Below are positions 41,453-52,459 of a stretch of 64,000 bases of DNA, piece by piece. The notes beneath the pieces are model-generated. The model did no database searches. It worked only from the letters and a program-made list of their open reading frames with translations, and was not told where the DNA came from. Origin of the DNA: an uncultured Desulfospira sp. Its GTDB lineage: Bacteria; Desulfobacterota; Desulfobacteria; Desulfobacterales; Desulfobacteraceae. How positions within the stretch are numbered: position 1 is the stretch's first letter; each line of letters starts with the position of its first letter. Made by a program: the position numbers and the translations under genes. The stretch covers positions 6,208,001 through 6,272,000 of the forward strand of contig OY760175.1 in assembly GCA_963663165.1 (NCBI GenBank), written 5' to 3'.

Positions 41453-42352
41453 TCAACCCTGATTGGTATGCAGTACCCGGACAATCCCGTCGGCAAGTCC
41501 CTGCATGGGGACGTGGATCTTTTCGCACCGGCCCCAGTCCATGGCCTTAAGGTAAATTTTCGCGCCGGGGATGATGACATCGGCCCGGTCCGGTTTAAGG
41601 TAAAAGCGCATCATCCGCTCTTCTAAAGAATAAGCGGCCAGATCGGCCCGGACCTTTTTGATTTTATCCCGGGTCACCCAGGACCCCGGCCGGCCCTTGG
41701 CCAGCTTGAACAGCTTGTTGATATTGCCGCCGCTGCCGATGGCCTCTACCGGGTCATGGCCCCGGGTTATTTTTTTCAGCCAGGACTTCATATGTTTCCA
41801 GTCCTTGTCCTGGACCCGGTCGTTGAGCAGCCGGATGGTCCCGATATTAAAAGACCGGCTGGCCCTGACCCGGCCGTCGCAGAACAGGGTAATCTCCGTG
41901 CTGCCGCCGCCCACATCCACGAACAGGGCCGCCTTTTGGGGCGAGGTCATGATCCTGTGGCGGTTTTGAAACAGATACCGGGCCTCCTGCTTGCCGTTGA
42001 TGATCTCAATGTCAATACCGGTCTTTTCTTTAATCCGCCGGCAGACGTCATCCCCGTTCTCAGCCGTTCTCATGGCGGATGTGGCGCAGGCCTTGAAGGC
42101 CACGGGCTGAAACGCGTCAATCAGGTTTGAAAACCCAGTCATGGTCTTTTGAAGTTTTTCGGCCCGTTCATCAGAGATCCGCCCGGTTAAAAAGGCATCT
42201 TCGCCCAGGCGGATGGGCATCCTCATCCAGGAAATCTTTTTGACCCGAAGATCGGCTTCTGTTTGCGAAACCATGGACAACAGCAGGCGTACCGCATTGG
42301 AACCGATGTCGATGGCCGCGTATTTAGTCATTGAATCCATAATGCTTGACAT
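41453..42352 (-). CDS. ppx: Ppx/GppA exopolyphosphatase (short form)
   Basis: IDIGSNAVR, ATSAMR, DVGGGSTE, DRADVI. Confidence 0.92.
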   Translation of the reverse strand: MSSIMDSMTKYAAIDIGSNAVRLLLSMVSQTEADLRVKKISWMRMPIRLGEDAFLTGRISDERAEKLQKTMTGFSNLIDAFQPVAFKACATSAMRTAENGDDVCRRIKEKTGIDIEIINGKQEARYLFQNRHRIMTSPQKAALFVDVGGGSTEITLFCDGRVRASRSFNIGTIRLLNDRVQDKDWKHMKSWLKKITRGHDPVEAIGSGGNINKLFKLAKGRPGSWVTRDKIKKVRADLAAYSLEERMMRFYLKPDRADVIIPGAKIYLKAMDWGRCEKIHVPMQGLADGIVRVLHTNQG

Positions 42353-42410
42353 CTTAGTATAATGACGTCATTATATCAAGACAGAAAAATCATGCTAACA
42401 AGGATCTCAC

Positions 42411-42572
42411 ATGGCTAAATCCAAAAAGGTGAACACCTCTCTTCGGCTGGAAAAAAAGGTTTTAAAAGAGCTTAAAATCCTGGCCATTGAAAAAGAGACC
42501 AGTGTTCAGGCCATCATGGAAAGACTCATCCACGAATATATTCAAAAAAATAAGGAAAAAACGGACCCATGA
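42411..42572 (+). CDS. Ribbon-helix-helix protein, 53 aa (absent from the ORF track)
   Basis: MAKSKKVNTSLRLEKKVLKELKILAIEKETSVQAIMERLIHEYIQKNKEKTDP; AAGGA RBS; ATGA overlap with the CHAD gene. Confidence 0.85.
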   Translation: MAKSKKVNTSLRLEKKVLKELKILAIEKETSVQAIMERLIHEYIQKNKEKTDP

Positions 42573-44080
42573 ATCTACCCGATCCCGGAACGTTTACGTT
42601 TCCGGCCGCCATCAAATTAAAAAGCCTTAACGCCGGACTCAAAGATTCCGGGATGATCCTTGAGGCAAATCCAGTGGAACCGGAGGACGGAATCGTTCTG
42701 GATACCTTTGATTCGGCCGTTTACCATTCACACAGCATCCTGTTGCAAACCGACGGCCGTCTGATCCGGATCTGTTATAAAGCCGGCCCCACGGTTCAGC
42801 CGGCCCCCAAAGGCAGCTGGAAATTCGCCAAAGACCTTCCCGACGGGGAGATAAAAACTTTTTTAGTGTCCCTGTGCCCCTTGCGTGCCCTCATGTCCGA
42901 GGGGAAAATTAAGCTGACCCTGGACACACTGCGGCTCCTGGATGACGAGAAGAAAACCCGCTGCCGAATTGAGGTGGTCTGCATCACCCGGGAGGCGCTT
43001 TCCTGGACCTTTATGCGAACCCTTCCCATGCGTGGTTATAACGCTGCCCATGACCTGATTTGCGACCTTCTCAATAAGGATGCTTTCCCGGCTTCTCCGG
43101 CAGAAGTTTTGAACCTGCCCATTTCAAACTATACCGCCAAGCCGGAGATCCGCCTTTCCCCCAAAGTGCCCATCAAGACCAGCCTGTGTGCTATTGTCAG
43201 TGCCTATCTTAATGTCACCCGCCTTAACGAAACCGGCCTTGCCAATGACATTGACACTGAATTTTTACACCAGTGGCGGGTCAGCCTGCGGAAAGTGCGG
43301 TCCGTGCTGACCCTGTTCAAGGGGGTGGTTGAAGCCCAAACCCTTGACAGGCTGAACCAGGATTTCAAAACCATTATGCAGGACACCAACCTGATGCGGG
43401 ACCGGGACGTTTACCTTTTATCCCGGGAAGACTACATGGCCATGGTGCCCCCTAAGGCACATCCCGGCCTTGAAATCCTCTTTGACCTGCTCGGGCAGGA
43501 GAGAAACCAGGCCTTTGAAAAGGTTAAGGCCATGCTCAGGTCCAAGGCCTACAAAAAACAGTTCAAAGCCCTTCAGGACCTGTTCAACGCCCCCAAAACC
43601 CTGCCGGCGGGGCCAAAGGCGGATGCCCCGTCCCGGGAGTTTGCCGCAGAACTTATTCTCAAACGGTATAAAAAGGTGTGCAAACTGGCAAAGGCCATTA
43701 CGGCCCAGACCCCGGATGAGACCATCCATGACTTGAGGATTCAGTGCAAAAAACTGCGCTACCTTATTGAATCGTCCGCCCCCCTGTTCGACCCCCAGAA
43801 GGGAAAGGACCTGCTCAAAACCCTTAAAGGCCTTCAGGAACACTTAGGGAATTTTAACGACCAGTCGGTCCAGCAGGTGACCTTAGCCCAGTGCCTTGAC
43901 CGGTATGCCGGCAAAGATGAGACCCAAAAGGCCCTGGCCGAAAGCATCGGTGCCCTGACCGCCATGCTTTACACCAGGCAGCTTGCCGAACGTCAGTTGA
44001 TTATTGACAACCTTTCCCAGTTTTACAGCCCCGAGACCCGGGACGCCGTTAACCAGCTTTTTGACCCAAAGGAGGCTTAA
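42569..44080 (+). CDS. CHAD domain protein
   Basis: EFLHQWRVSLRKVRS, RDRDV, IHDLRIQCKKLRY, LQEHLGNFND. Confidence 0.92.
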   Translation: MNLPDPGTFTFPAAIKLKSLNAGLKDSGMILEANPVEPEDGIVLDTFDSAVYHSHSILLQTDGRLIRICYKAGPTVQPAPKGSWKFAKDLPDGEIKTFLVSLCPLRALMSEGKIKLTLDTLRLLDDEKKTRCRIEVVCITREALSWTFMRTLPMRGYNAAHDLICDLLNKDAFPASPAEVLNLPISNYTAKPEIRLSPKVPIKTSLCAIVSAYLNVTRLNETGLANDIDTEFLHQWRVSLRKVRSVLTLFKGVVEAQTLDRLNQDFKTIMQDTNLMRDRDVYLLSREDYMAMVPPKAHPGLEILFDLLGQERNQAFEKVKAMLRSKAYKKQFKALQDLFNAPKTLPAGPKADAPSREFAAELILKRYKKVCKLAKAITAQTPDETIHDLRIQCKKLRYLIESSAPLFDPQKGKDLLKTLKGLQEHLGNFNDQSVQQVTLAQCLDRYAGKDETQKALAESIGALTAMLYTRQLAERQLIIDNLSQFYSPETRDAVNQLFDPKEA

Positions 44081-44084
44081 ATCC

Positions 44085-44819
44085 GTGAAACTCATTGCCT
44101 GCTATTCCAACAAGGGCGGGGTCGGCAAAACTGCGGCCTCGGTCAACCTGTCCTATGCCAGCGCCCTTTGGGGCAACAAAACCCTGTTGTGCGACCTGGA
44201 CCCCCAGGGGGCTTCGGGATTTTACTTTCGAGTAAAGCCGTCCAAAAAGCTTACGGACCAGACCTTTTTCAAGGATACCCGGAAATTTGCAGACGCCATC
44301 CGGGCCAGTGACTATGAAAACCTGGATCTGCTGCCGGCCAATTTAAGTTTCAGGGATTTTGACATTCTGCTGTCAAGGATGAAAAAAAGCCGGACCCGGC
44401 TCGATAAACCCTTAAAATCCGTGGACGGGGAATATGATGTGATTATTTTGGACTGCCCCCCCAACATCTCCCTTTTGTCTGAAAATGTCTTTAAGGTGGC
44501 CGATCAGATTGTGGTACCGGTGATTCCCACCACCCTTTCCCAGCGAAGCCTTGAGCATCTGTACGATTTTTTCAAGGACAATGGGTATAAGACGGGTAAA
44601 ATACAGCCGTTTTTCTCCATGGTCCAGCAAAGCAAGTCACTTCATATAACCACCATGGAACAGATCCGGGCCGGCCATAAAAAAGTAATGAACACCAGTA
44701 TTCCCTTTTCCACCCATATTGAACGGATGGGCATCTACCGGGCCCCGGCCTTAAGCTATGCCGGAAAGGAGACCGCTGTGGCCGCCTATATGGACTTGTG
44801 GAAAGAAATTCAAAATTAA
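44085..44819 (+). CDS. ParA/Soj-family ATPase
   Basis: GGAGG + GTG start; KGGVGKT, DLDPQG, LDCPP. Confidence 0.93.
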   Translation: MKLIACYSNKGGVGKTAASVNLSYASALWGNKTLLCDLDPQGASGFYFRVKPSKKLTDQTFFKDTRKFADAIRASDYENLDLLPANLSFRDFDILLSRMKKSRTRLDKPLKSVDGEYDVIILDCPPNISLLSENVFKVADQIVVPVIPTTLSQRSLEHLYDFFKDNGYKTGKIQPFFSMVQQSKSLHITTMEQIRAGHKKVMNTSIPFSTHIERMGIYRAPALSYAGKETAVAAYMDLWKEIQN

Positions 44820-44826
44820 CGGCCAC

Positions 44827-44861
44827 ACAGCTAAAGGCTAACAGCTGAAAGCTAAAGGCTC
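44827..44861. repeat. Heptamer array, family A x5
   Basis: acagcta aaggcta acagctg aaagcta aaggctc. Confidence 0.85.
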
Positions 44862-44882
44862 TAAGACAAGGTCCCATTTATC

Positions 44883-45344
44883 ATGAAAGAGATTGAACGA
44901 AAATTTTTGCTGTCCCAGATGCCGGACATTCCTTTGCAATCCACCGTGTCGGTCCGGCAGGGCTATATTACCGAATCTGAGGACTCTGTGGAGGTCCGGC
45001 TGCGCCAGAAAGGGGACCGCTTTTTTATGACCGTTAAAAAGGGCCAGGGCCTTGTCCGGGAAGAGGGGGAAATCAGCATTACACCAGAAGATTTTAACCG
45101 GCTGTGGCCCATGACCCGGGGAAGACAGGTGGAAAAGACCCGGTCCAAATCTGATTTAGGAAACGGACTGGTCGCGGAAATCGATGTCTTTTCAGGGGAT
45201 CTTGAGGGCCTGATGCTTTGTGAGGTGGAGTTCAAAGACCCGGACCAGGCTGAACAATTTACTCCCCCCTGGTGGTTTGGCACCGATGTGACCCAGGACA
45301 GCCGGTACAAAAACAAGAGCCTTGCCCAAAAGGGGATTCCTTAA
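44883..45344 (+). CDS. CYTH (triphosphate tunnel) protein
   Basis: EIERKFL, QGY, VRLR, EKTR, EVEF, YKN. Confidence 0.93.
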   Translation: MKEIERKFLLSQMPDIPLQSTVSVRQGYITESEDSVEVRLRQKGDRFFMTVKKGQGLVREEGEISITPEDFNRLWPMTRGRQVEKTRSKSDLGNGLVAEIDVFSGDLEGLMLCEVEFKDPDQAEQFTPPWWFGTDVTQDSRYKNKSLAQKGIP

Positions 45345-47869: not shown

Positions 47870-47979
47870 CCGCGGCATCGATGTTCATACGGTGGGGCAG
47901 TTTTTAAATTCGTTGTCATATCCCCGGTGTCCGGGCTATGGCAATTTTAGGCTGGAAATGGGGTTTATCTTCAAAAAAT

Positions 47980-48063
47980 TGGACTTGGGACTTGGGATAT
48001 GGGACCTGGGGATTGCGGCATCCACGGCCTCCCCAAGTCCCATATCCCATATCCCAAGTCTCA
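47980..48063. repeat. Heptamer hairpin array, family C
   Basis: tgggact tgggata tgggacc ... ccccaag tcccata tcccata tcccaag tctcaac. Confidence 0.85.
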
Positions 48064-48191: not shown

Positions 48192-50228
48192 ATGAATGAT
48201 TTGCAGGAAATGGTCAGCGTGGAAAAGAAAAAATACAGGTTTGATAATAACTTCCTGGTTCTGGAAACCGAATGCGGTGAATATAAATTCCAGATCAGTG
48301 GGGAGACCGGACAGGCCGACGCCGAAAAGATTGCCGGGATCATGACCGGTGAAATGGAAAAAGCAGACCAGGTCTTTGATCAGGGCCAGATGAAATCAAG
48401 CCCCTATGCCAAACTGTTGCTTGCCAACCTGAACATTTCAGACCGGTTTGTCCGCCTTGAAAACAAGTATGAAGCGCTTGCCCGGGCTTACGAAGATTTA
48501 AAGGACCGGTCGGCCCGGGTCCATGATTCGGAAAATCCCGGCCAAACGGTTTCACGAGAACCGGACACCCCCCTGGCGGCCCCGGCCCCGGAAGCCGTTC
48601 ATAATGATACGGCCGTTTCAGCCCCCCAAAAGCCGGGTCCCCTGATCCGCCAGATTCTTGGCAATCTGGCCGCCTCCCCGGCCCTTGAAGAACCGTCATC
48701 TGACGGCGGGAAAGACACCCGGCCATCCGGCAGCCGGACTGAACCTGAACCGGCCGGACAACCGCCGGCCCTGTCCCGCCCCATGCCCCCGGAGACCGGA
48801 AAGTTTACCCTGCCGTCCCTGGATTTTCTTGAACAGGGAAAACAGGAAGCCGCCGTTGACCATGAGGTCATCCGGCGGGATGCGGAACTGCTTGAGCAGA
48901 AACTGGGGTATTTCGGCATCAAGGGAGAGGTCATGGAAGTCTCTCCCGGCCCTGTGATCACCACCTTTGAATACAAGCCGGCCCCGGGGATTAAAATCAG
49001 TAAAATCGTTAACCTGGCCGATGATCTGGCCCTGGCCTTGAGCGCGTTGAGCATCCGCCTGGTGGCCCCCATACCAGGGAAAGACGTCATCGGCGTTGAA
49101 ATCCCCAACCCGAGCATGAGCATTGTTCCATTCCGGGATATTGTCAGTTCCAAAGCGTTTGAACAGATCCATTCTCCCACCCCCATCTGCCTGGGCAAGG
49201 ACATCATCGGCAACCCGGTGGTGGTGGGGCTTGAGAAAATGCCCCATCTGCTCATCGCCGGGGCCACGGGAACCGGTAAAAGCGTGGCCTTGAATGCCAT
49301 GATTGCCAGTATCCTGTACAAATCTACCCCGGACCGGGTGAAATTCATCATGATTGATCCCAAGCGGATCGAGCTTTCCCTGTTCAACGACATCCCCCAT
49401 CTGCTCACCCCGGTGATCACGGATATGAAAAAGGCCACCATTGCCCTTCAGTGGGTGGTCCGGGAGATGGAACATCGGTACGAACAGCTGGCAAAGCACA
49501 AGGTCAGAAATATCGAGCAGTACAACCGGAAAATCAGGAAAAAGGAGCTGTCAAAGGATGTGGAAAGCCCTGAGCCCTTTCCCTACATTATCGTGATCAT
49601 TGACGAGCTGGCAGACCTGATGATGACGGCCAGCAAGGATATTGAATTTTCCCTTACCCGCATCGCCCAGATGGCCAGGGCGGCCGGCATTCACCTGATT
49701 CTGGCCACCCAGCGCCCGTCAGTGGATGTCTTAACCGGCATTATCAAGGCCAATTTCCCCACCCGGATATCCTTTCAGGTCTCTTCAAAGACCGACTCCA
49801 GAACGATTATTGACGCCAACGGGGCGGAAACCCTTCTGGGCAGGGGGGATATGCTCTTTGTGCCGCCGGGAACAGCCCGGCTCCAACGGGTCCACGGCAC
49901 CTACCTGTCTGAAAAAGAGCTTGTCACCATCACCGATTTTGTCAAAGCCCAGGGAGCCCCCGAATACGTTCTGGACATCACCACGGAGAAAGACGACGTC
50001 ATGGAAGTCGTTGACATCAGTGATGATGAATATGATGAAAAATACCAGCAGGCTATAGACCATGTCATGTCCACCCGGCAGGCCTCCATATCCGGTGTCC
50101 AGCGGGCATTGAGAATCGGCTACAACCGGGCCGCAAGGATTATTGATATCATGGAAAAAAACGGGGTGGTTTCCCCGTCGGACGGGGTCAAGCCCCGGCA
50201 GGTTCTCAAGGGCCCGGATTATTTTTAA
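48192..50228 (+). CDS. ftsK: FtsK/SpoIIIE DNA translocase with ZapA-like N-terminus and no TM domain
   Basis: PHLLIAGATGTGKS, IDPK, IDELADL, RAAGIHLILATQRP, gamma domain QRALRIGYNRAAR; N-terminal LLANLNISDRF plus coiled coil. Confidence 0.93.
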   Translation: MNDLQEMVSVEKKKYRFDNNFLVLETECGEYKFQISGETGQADAEKIAGIMTGEMEKADQVFDQGQMKSSPYAKLLLANLNISDRFVRLENKYEALARAYEDLKDRSARVHDSENPGQTVSREPDTPLAAPAPEAVHNDTAVSAPQKPGPLIRQILGNLAASPALEEPSSDGGKDTRPSGSRTEPEPAGQPPALSRPMPPETGKFTLPSLDFLEQGKQEAAVDHEVIRRDAELLEQKLGYFGIKGEVMEVSPGPVITTFEYKPAPGIKISKIVNLADDLALALSALSIRLVAPIPGKDVIGVEIPNPSMSIVPFRDIVSSKAFEQIHSPTPICLGKDIIGNPVVVGLEKMPHLLIAGATGTGKSVALNAMIASILYKSTPDRVKFIMIDPKRIELSLFNDIPHLLTPVITDMKKATIALQWVVREMEHRYEQLAKHKVRNIEQYNRKIRKKELSKDVESPEPFPYIIVIIDELADLMMTASKDIEFSLTRIAQMARAAGIHLILATQRPSVDVLTGIIKANFPTRISFQVSSKTDSRTIIDANGAETLLGRGDMLFVPPGTARLQRVHGTYLSEKELVTITDFVKAQGAPEYVLDITTEKDDVMEVVDISDDEYDEKYQQAIDHVMSTRQASISGVQRALRIGYNRAARIIDIMEKNGVVSPSDGVKPRQVLKGPDYF

Positions 50229-50247
50229 CCACAGGGACAACAGGGGC

Positions 50248-50283
50248 GAAGACCCCGGGATACAGGAAGACCCGGGGATACAG
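50248..50283. repeat. 18-bp tandem duplication
   Basis: GAAGACCCCGGGATACAG / GAAGACCCGGGGATACAG. Confidence 0.85.
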
Positions 50284-50316
50284 AAAAGCCTTAACTGAAA
50301 AAAAGTCTCCCGGCCT

Positions 50317-51161: not shown

Positions 51162-51974
51162 TTATATTTTGTACATGGTAAGAATACCCGAAATCATGGC
51201 AAAGGCCACAAATCCCACAAGGGTGCCTAAAAACAGAATCAGAACCGGTTCGACCATGGCGTTCATCCGCTGGACATAGGTCTTTAACATTTTTTCATGA
51301 ATATCAGCGGCAATGGAAAGGCTGGTCTCCACACTGCCCGTCTCTTCTCCGACAGCCACCATGCTGGCCACCATGGGCGGGAAAATATGGCCGGCCGCCT
51401 TGATGGGGGCGGACAGGCTCTCTCCGCGCAGGATATGCTCTTCCATTGTTTCCATCACCCGCCTGGCGGCCCGGTTGCCAATGATCCCCTTAACAATCTT
51501 CAAGGATTCCAGGATGCTGATGCCGCTGCCGATCAGGGTGGACAGGTTCCGTGTAAACTGGACGATAAGGGAATAATAAAAGACCGGCCCGATAACGGGT
51601 ATCCGGGTCTTGAGAATATCGATCCCATACCGGACCCGTGAATTCCAGCGGTACAGAAGATAAAAGGACACCCCGCCTGAGCAGAGACCGGCCAGCAGGT
51701 ACCGCCAGTACACTTTGAACCATTCACTCACATCAATGATCAGCTGGGTGTTCCAGGGAAGCCTATGGGTTCTCAAGCGGAGCAGGGGTGTGATCCTCGG
51801 GATGACAAAGGAGACCAGAAAAACGACGACGACCACCACCACAATGGTGACAATGATGGGGTAAATGGCCCCGGTAATCAGGTGGCTCCTGAAATTGGCG
51901 TCCTCTTCAATGTGGTCGGCGATCCGTGTGAGCATCACCCCGAGGGTGCCGCTGGCCTCTCCGGCCGCCACCAT
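51162..51974 (-). pseudogene. N-terminally truncated T2SS GspF/PilC
   Basis: Starts at the internal motif MVAAGEASGTL; YP, MVAVGEETG, EP; no RBS and no partner genes. Confidence 0.8.
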
Positions 51975-52459
51975 TCACCCAACGCCTCCTGAAAGGTCTT
52001 TTTCAGCCGGGCGGCCGAACCGGGAGGCGGTTCAAGGTGCGCCGGCAGCGGCGGCAGCACCAGGCGCTCCGGCCCATCATCGTGGTTGCCCCGGATGGGA
52101 TACACCTTAATGCCGGATCGGTAGACCGGGGCCATGGCCTTTTTCCAGTTTTGATATTGGACCGGGTATGGTGTGCCGCCGTTCCTGAACCAGCCGTTGA
52201 TAAGGTCGCCGGAAACCAGCACAAGATCAGGTTTTTCAAGCACAATGTCATTGGCAATGGCCTGGACAACCCTGTCATTGACACAGGAATGGCCTTCAGG
52301 TGCCCGGTTAGATCCCTGGGTGTCCGTGACCACTGCAAATTTCCAGGGGGGTGGCGTTAACCGGGTACAGGAAGCACCGGCCAGGGAAAATGCTAAAATC
52401 AGGATCAATAGAACAGACAGATGTTTTTTATGGGCAAGTGATGGCATGGCCCGCTCCAA
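51975..52459 (-). pseudogene. C-terminally truncated metallophosphoesterase lipoprotein
   Basis: Lipobox-like LAGASC; DTQG, GDL and GNHD present; later His motifs absent. Confidence 0.78.

Follow-up and report, generated by a model that had tools for sequence, protein, structure and literature searches.

It is an open question how DNA pumps that lack a membrane anchor reach the septum, and equally why certain bacteria maintain two pumps (PMC5357621). In Bacillus subtilis, SftA is a second FtsK-type motor, devoid of transmembrane helices, that exists beside the membrane paralogue SpoIIIE; its N-terminus recruits it to the Z-ring, and its tether, an amphipathic helix that acts with SepF or FtsA, does not depend on ZapA (PMC9320952, PMC5357621). 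Canonical FtsK/SpoIIIE proteins (E. coli, P. aeruginosa; PDB 2IUS, 2IUT, 2J5P, 2VE8/9) combine a long variable linker with an alpha-beta-gamma motor and its catalytic motifs, and in E. coli FtsK residues R1300, E1303 and E1306 read KOPS (PMC2680272). ZapA (PF05164; PDB 1W2E/1T3U, 4P1M, 2MMV, 9ISJ/9ISK) is built from a beta-hairpin, two helices and a coiled coil, and in the ZapA-FtsZ complex the dimer head sandwiches the tail at the N-terminus of FtsZ (PMC12216130; PMC12754632), with contacts that include Asn60, Gly12 and Arg16 of ZapA, and with Phe2 of FtsZ as the hook (PMC12216130). The dimer-only ZapA variant I83E binds protofilaments sparsely (PMC12216130), and dimer-only ZapA is diffuse in vivo in E. 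coli (PMC7246612).

The window analysed here, a stretch of 64,000 nucleotides from the 6.74 Mb single-contig genome of an uncultured Desulfospira sp., encodes a protein in which elements of both families are joined, and this ZapA-FtsK architecture is certain. We consider it fairly probable, with room left for other readings, that the protein is a chromosomal, non-membrane FtsK paralogue in which the four-TM anchor has been replaced by a ZapA-derived head that tethers the motor to FtsZ. The fusion occupies a single unbroken 678-codon ORF (48192-50228, + strand) that contains the FtsK alpha, motor (aa 315-511) and gamma (aa 613-672) domains, each far above its Pfam cut-off, as the sequence-only reading had claimed in placing motor and gamma domain in one frame. 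That reading had the gene begin at 48192, but the GTG at 48219 (V10) is the likely start, since alignment across the full set of 41 heads of alignment A2 begins there, with a GTG in 11 of the 12 orthologue loci displayed; the upstream ATG is common only to the window gene and its closest relative. The features are collected in Table 1.

Table 1. Features of the ZapA-FtsK fusion gene (window coordinates; residue numbers count from the ATG at 48192).
Feature	Position	Strand	Basis
Possible 9-codon N-terminal extension with ATG start, probably untranslated	48192..48218	+	Orthologues align from GTG 48219
Diverged ZapA-like head, aa 10-104	48219..48503	+	Profile retrieves free ZapAs; hhalign 98.9%; fold matches; coil analysis
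N81, which corresponds to Asn60 of ZapA from E. coli/Klebsiella	48432..48434	+	Asn in 41/41 A2 rows and 49/51 wider rows
Pro-rich low-confidence linker, aa 105-206	48504..48809	+	pLDDT <50 over aa 107-224; dN/dS 0.38-0.89
Short amphipathic linker helix, aa 148-160	48633..48671	+	Modelled helix 150-160; hydrophobic moment 0.58
FtsK alpha domain, aa 207-306	48810..49109	+	PF17854, E 9e-33
FtsK beta (RecA-like ATPase) domain	49134..49961	+	PF01580, E 6e-72
Walker A within FtsK beta domain	49260-49283	+	
FtsK gamma winged helix	50028..50207	+	PF09397; aligned to 2J5P/5DCF

The N-terminus had been read as lacking a hydrophobic segment and as followed by a proline-rich linker, and both descriptions hold. 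The highest 19-residue Kyte-Doolittle mean over aa 1-210 was 0.43, compared with peaks of 2-3.1 in the membrane FtsK of the same genome, and the 4-TM domain PF13491, present in that paralogue, had no match in the fusion protein. A manual count gave about 18 prolines per 100 residues for aa 105-204. The linker is long and variable, as in canonical FtsK, with a length that differs widely among orthologues, and its amphipathic helix is kept in a subset of them (strict pattern in 11/54 loci); the full-length AF2 model (pLDDT 48.7) served solely to gauge linker disorder. Promoter and terminator scans yielded no signal above chance level. A frameshift or assembly chimera was ruled out, given that in 53 of the 57 family genomes that carry the fusion the open frame containing the head spans 680 codons or more, the remaining four being short frames in draft assemblies. 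A mobile or defence gene was likewise ruled out, because 18 fusion loci compared share no neighbours beyond close kin; unlike the membrane ftsK, which follows rnj in the genomes checked, the fusion is a solitary gene.

The gene is preceded, in the gap on its upstream side (47979-48062), by an imperfect inverted repeat made up of units of 7 bases, and a short direct repeat comes directly past its stop codon (50240-50285). Farther away, a cluster at 41453-45344 comprises CHAD, ParA-like and CYTH genes together with what we take to be a Ppx/GppA-like gene and is probably concerned with polyphosphate handling, while at 51162-52459 there are two seemingly truncated ORFs that we presume to be PilC/GspF-like (270 aa) and metallophosphoesterase-like (174 aa).

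On profile and model comparisons, the first ~100 residues are best described as a diverged ZapA domain, an assignment that rests on family-level tests. Taken singly, the window protein reached 16.9 bits against Pfam ZapA (PF05164), under the 23.8 cut-off, the E value being 0.008 when aa 1-123 were taken as a fragment and 0.56 at full length, whereas 26 of the 41 heads matched the family at E <0.01 and six orthologous fusions passed the cut-off. NCBIfam had no match on the head, and the head profile matched none of the PDB sequences. The top Pfam match on the head fragment was JAKMIP_CC3; a chance coiled-coil match of this kind was ruled out, as searches with the head profile return ZapA almost exclusively. 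Among 60,429 ORFs, the genome's own ZapA was the sole non-self match of the fusion-head profile with E <1 (E 2.2e-4), and 75 proteins were retrieved from 1.84 billion representatives; 61 of these 75 were scanned, where 54 of the 55 short proteins were Pfam ZapA above cut-off and all six long ones were FtsK fusions. The comparison by hhalign of the head alignment with an alignment of mostly free ZapAs gave 98.9%.

The AF2 model of the head (pLDDT 84) shows an extra N-terminal strand, a beta-hairpin, helix 1, and helix 2 continuing into a short coiled coil, with strands at aa 15-18, 21-26 and 29-34 and helices spanning roughly aa 39-64 and 71-106. The order strand-strand-helix-helix-coiled coil proposed from the letters was thus right for the helices and the coil but one strand short. 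Foldseek placed ZapA entries at ranks 1-4 (E 0.04-0.17; 1T3U, among these matches, is listed as ZapA alongside 1W2E), and VIA at ranks 1, 3 and 6 (Z 7.5, rmsd 2.8 Å, 82 residues); these scores are modest, with Foldseek E never <0.001 and VIA Z <8, and none is significant alone. Family profile searches, hhalign and fold matches nevertheless agree with the ZapA identity earlier given to the first ~105 residues, and the ZapA-type helix sequence on which it drew, LLLANLNISDRF, lies at aa 75-86.

The head shares with ZapA the hairpin Gly and the Asn60-equivalent, both found in 41/41 A2 heads, and a basic residue (Lys/Arg) stands at the Arg16-equivalent in 29/41; the equivalence of these positions, N81 to Asn60 among them, was chained through two comparisons. 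The hook is represented in this genome's FtsZ by an aromatic Phe close to the N-terminus, as it is in 24 of the 27 FtsZs of the order displayed (manual count), and the extra strand of the head is located near the surface that contacts FtsZ. The coil of the head departs from that of ZapA. The hydrophobic residues of the ZapA bundle end, at Asn+26, +27, +30 and +34, were counted in 82, 65, 82 and 63 of 83 free ZapAs as against 28, 6, 8 and 5 of 51 fusion heads (two of the 51 rows being mis-anchored), and the coil end that forms the tetramer (four-helix bundle) is lost in fusion heads of the window's type, although some less diverged fusions, P0120 and L088-L091, retain the tetramer helix. Because this hydrophobic pattern is lost, the head is ZapA-derived rather than a complete ZapA: unlike ZapA, it has an extra N-terminal strand, no tetramer helix and a fused motor, and the host keeps a separate free ZapA. 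Of the proposal of a built-in ZapA module, the ZapA ancestry stands but the tetramer-forming end does not; as tetramer loss abolishes midcell localisation in E. coli, a simple built-in ZapA would be insufficient, and avidity has to be invoked.

Across seven pairs, pairwise dN/dS ranged from 0.15 to 0.42 in the head, from 0.38 to 0.89 in the linker and from 0.00 to 0.13 in the motor domains, indicating that the head is under purifying selection at the sequence level. A predicted complex of two heads and two FtsZ scored 0.43 against 0.00 for the best control, with contact agreement between runs of at least 88% and partner pLDDT of at least 78. The mark for this score was reached by 116/157 solved pairs and 2/215 mismatched pairs, and the passes at or below 0.60, where 0.43 falls, comprise 18/157 solved pairs and both passing mismatches; a similar complex has already been solved, and the score is weak and possibly derives from likeness to it.

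Recruitment of the fusion through FtsZ is plausible from these sequence and model comparisons, and was weighed against a reading in which the head is an assembly module only, its FtsZ binding having decayed, so that a parallel dimer clamp would pre-assemble a motor that is free in the cytoplasm and acts on DNA at any place, e.g. on catenanes, dimers or stalled forks. This would fit the invariant head positions, most of which are hydrophobic core or coil residues, the switch of the coil to a plain dimer register (Asn+22 is hydrophobic in 38/51 fusions and in 2/83 ZapAs) and the diffuse dimer-only ZapA of E. coli. Yet the entire globular head, hairpin Gly and Asn60-equivalent included, is under purifying selection, which argues against it since dimerisation would need no more than a coil, and the predicted complex, weak as it is, scored above its controls. 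We regard this reading as unlikely.

As regards the motor, the Walker A, Walker B, arginine-finger and ATQRP motifs were intact in 48/48 fusions, and the window's motor is 61% identical over 481 residues to the membrane FtsK of its own genome. The comparison of sequences assigns the fusion to the FtsK motor family; it is no canonical membrane FtsK, differing from these in having no FtsK_4TM domain and in one KOPS-reading residue. In the gamma domain, R649 and E655 correspond to E. coli R1300 and E1306, while the E1303 position is Asp (D652); it is Asp in 48/48 fusions and Glu in 59/59 membrane FtsKs, and since the change is found in every fusion, KOPS reading may be altered. Among 10,411 gapped octamers of the genome, the one with the strongest skew to the leading strand is KOPS itself, GGGNAGGG (66%, and 75% near the terminus). 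A single candidate dif-like match was observed at G000:C1:574141, some 180 kb away from the terminus that GC skew places at 755,625. Among the tyrosine recombinase genes of the genome are three equal-scoring sets, of 4, 8 and 4 copies, which are probably mobile elements.

The joining of a terminus-seeking DNA motor and an FtsZ-binding fold in one chain could also be read in the reverse direction, the motor following KOPS to the terminus and delivering FtsZ-binding heads that help to place or time the Z-ring, a job that in E. coli belongs to MatP-ZapB-ZapA. The strong KOPS polarity, the lack of a MatP match in the host genome and the part played by ZapA in linking the terminus, in both E. coli and Caulobacter (PMC12754632), would agree with it, while MinC is present and the fusion is patchy across family genomes; we hold it to be rather improbable. 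The absence of MatP says little, as to our knowledge MatP is not expected outside some gammaproteobacteria.

The separate zapA and TM-ftsK genes that the sequence-only reading proposed to look for were both found in the host genome. A normal four-TM membrane FtsK lies ~100 kb from the fusion gene, after rnj, and a normal free zapA is preceded by what we take to be glmU and a zapB-like gene; XerD is also present. A third FtsK-type ATPase of ~500 aa (L006; G000:C1:3886874-3888397, - strand) was observed, without a hydrophobic segment and apparently without a gamma domain, with a possibly DndE-like N-terminus. An indirect tether, in which the head would be brought to the ring by a partner, either free ZapA (in a mixed dimer or tetramer) or ZapB, would suit the zapB-like ORF upstream of zapA, the ZapA matches in 139/161 family genomes and the tetramer helix of the less diverged fusions, but we judge it likewise rather improbable, because the tetramer/ZapB-recruiting end is gone in the window's type and the head is only 22% identical to the genome's own ZapA.

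Direct tethering to FtsZ, the favoured reading, probably needs avidity from the motor hexamer, given that non-tetramerising E. coli ZapA binds FtsZ poorly and leaves midcell; from the loss of the tetramer end, and by analogy, we infer that hexamerisation of the motor supplies it. The head, unable to tetramerise, would neither bundle FtsZ nor recruit ZapB, and at most three dimer heads per motor hexamer would provide the avidity to remain on the Z-ring. The motor would then load under the ring on KOPS-oriented DNA and clear the septum by pumping the terminus region away from it, acting before the membrane FtsK or together with it; it could also activate XerCD. With a soluble pump at the ring, one lineage could lose its membrane ftsK.

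Among the family genomes at least 94% complete (n = 89), the fusion was found in 42, of which 40 show two FtsK-type matches. For G015 the two listed FtsK matches both fall in the membrane FtsK, as pieces of it, and both genes are nevertheless present; the G029 assembly is fragmented, and its TM domain falls where a contig ends. In three genomes, Desulfocicer vacuolatum DSM 3385 (G651, locus L128), an uncultured Desulfocicer (G652, L127) and G653 (L131), rnj adjoins a methyltransferase gene without ftsK, with gaps of ~190, 670 and 100 bp, respectively, that contain no Ns. FtsK_4TM was matched in 0/3 of these genomes and in both positive-control genomes; the fusion is the only canonical-scoring FtsK in each, G652 having one extra weak, distant FtsK-domain ORF, and XerD was above cut-off in all three. 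The three are related (their fusions are 65-84% identical) and probably reflect one loss of membrane ftsK; in G103 the ftsK flanks are also joined without ftsK, and it was not counted as an additional case. The fusion is likely to be the sole FtsK-type pump of the Desulfocicer clade, on the evidence of three draft assemblies, in which membrane ftsK may conceivably have been relocated. A repeat of 140-240 bp (L271:6090-6330) occurs in dozens of copies in G103 and at the 3' end of the membrane ftsK in G100, and by eye the ftsK-less gaps of G652 and G653 (L279, L281) contain similar sequence; repeats of this type might have mediated the loss. The fullest form of the proposal, a motor-driven terminus-ring link made of one protein, in which KOPS-guided hexamers bring three FtsZ-gripping heads to the terminus, tie the position or timing of the ring to segregation with no contact to the membrane, and in the Desulfocicer clade take the place of membrane FtsK entirely, we consider doubtful.

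Conservation in relatives was borne out within limits. Head matches were obtained in 58 of 161 family genomes, one of which (G084) was a free ZapA, leaving the 57 carriers, which fall in at most 10 of 19 genera; no head match was found in 104/161 family genomes, indicating that the fusion is dispensable. The same diverged fusion type is present in Desulfosarcina, Desulfococcaceae and several Desulfobulbia, and a second set, whose ZapA head is closer to the usual form, was seen in other families of the Desulfobacterales. In a 201-genome sample of the phylum, long-frame ZapA matches were limited, among the 150 of 152 matches listed, to three Desulfobacterales. A split fusion, with the head in a 115-codon frame and the motor in a separate frame, was observed in G362 (L093/L141), an assembly with 15% contamination.

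In a motor tree of 42 chosen rows (LG+G4), the diverged fusion type formed one clade (100/100) and all fusions grouped with Desulfobacteraceae membrane FtsKs (92/95). The best tree nests these membrane FtsKs among the fusions, and a single origin of all fusions, compatible with the motor sequences, was not rejected (AU p 0.37). The Desulfobulbia fusions L139 and L142-L148 nest beside Desulfamplus copies and far from the membrane FtsKs of their hosts, a placement that suggests transfer of the fusion between classes.

By analogy, the fusion would work most like SftA but with a different tether. On the available description of SftA (PMC9320952, PMC5357621), the fusion is set apart in that its N-terminus is the ZapA fold itself, and unlike SftA its motor groups with Desulfobacterales membrane FtsKs (in the tree above, which holds no Bacillus sequence) and its host is Gram-negative. 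Automatic annotation already assigns the Pfam architecture ZapA+FtsK to three fusions of the second set, and NCBI names one of them ZapA. Crozat et al. 2015 reportedly surveyed FtsK N-termini and could mention the architecture. In agreement with the earlier statement that no characterised example was known, a search of the openly accessible literature, judged in part from titles and abstracts, returned no description of a ZapA-FtsK fusion, and text passages of PMC7873302, from the ZapA/FtsK/desulfo literature, make no mention of it. The fusion is real and under selection and appears to be undescribed in papers, though three of its members stand in automatic Pfam architectures.

Since the tether of this protein is legible from its sequence, single mutations can test tethering. 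The head is a natural dimer-only ZapA, with which it can be tested whether avidity replaces tetramerisation. A Gram-negative type strain that seemingly has the soluble pump alone is a natural experiment on the need for the FtsK membrane domain, both in division and in Xer recombination, and the fusion as a whole suggests an undescribed way to couple DNA segregation directly to the division ring.
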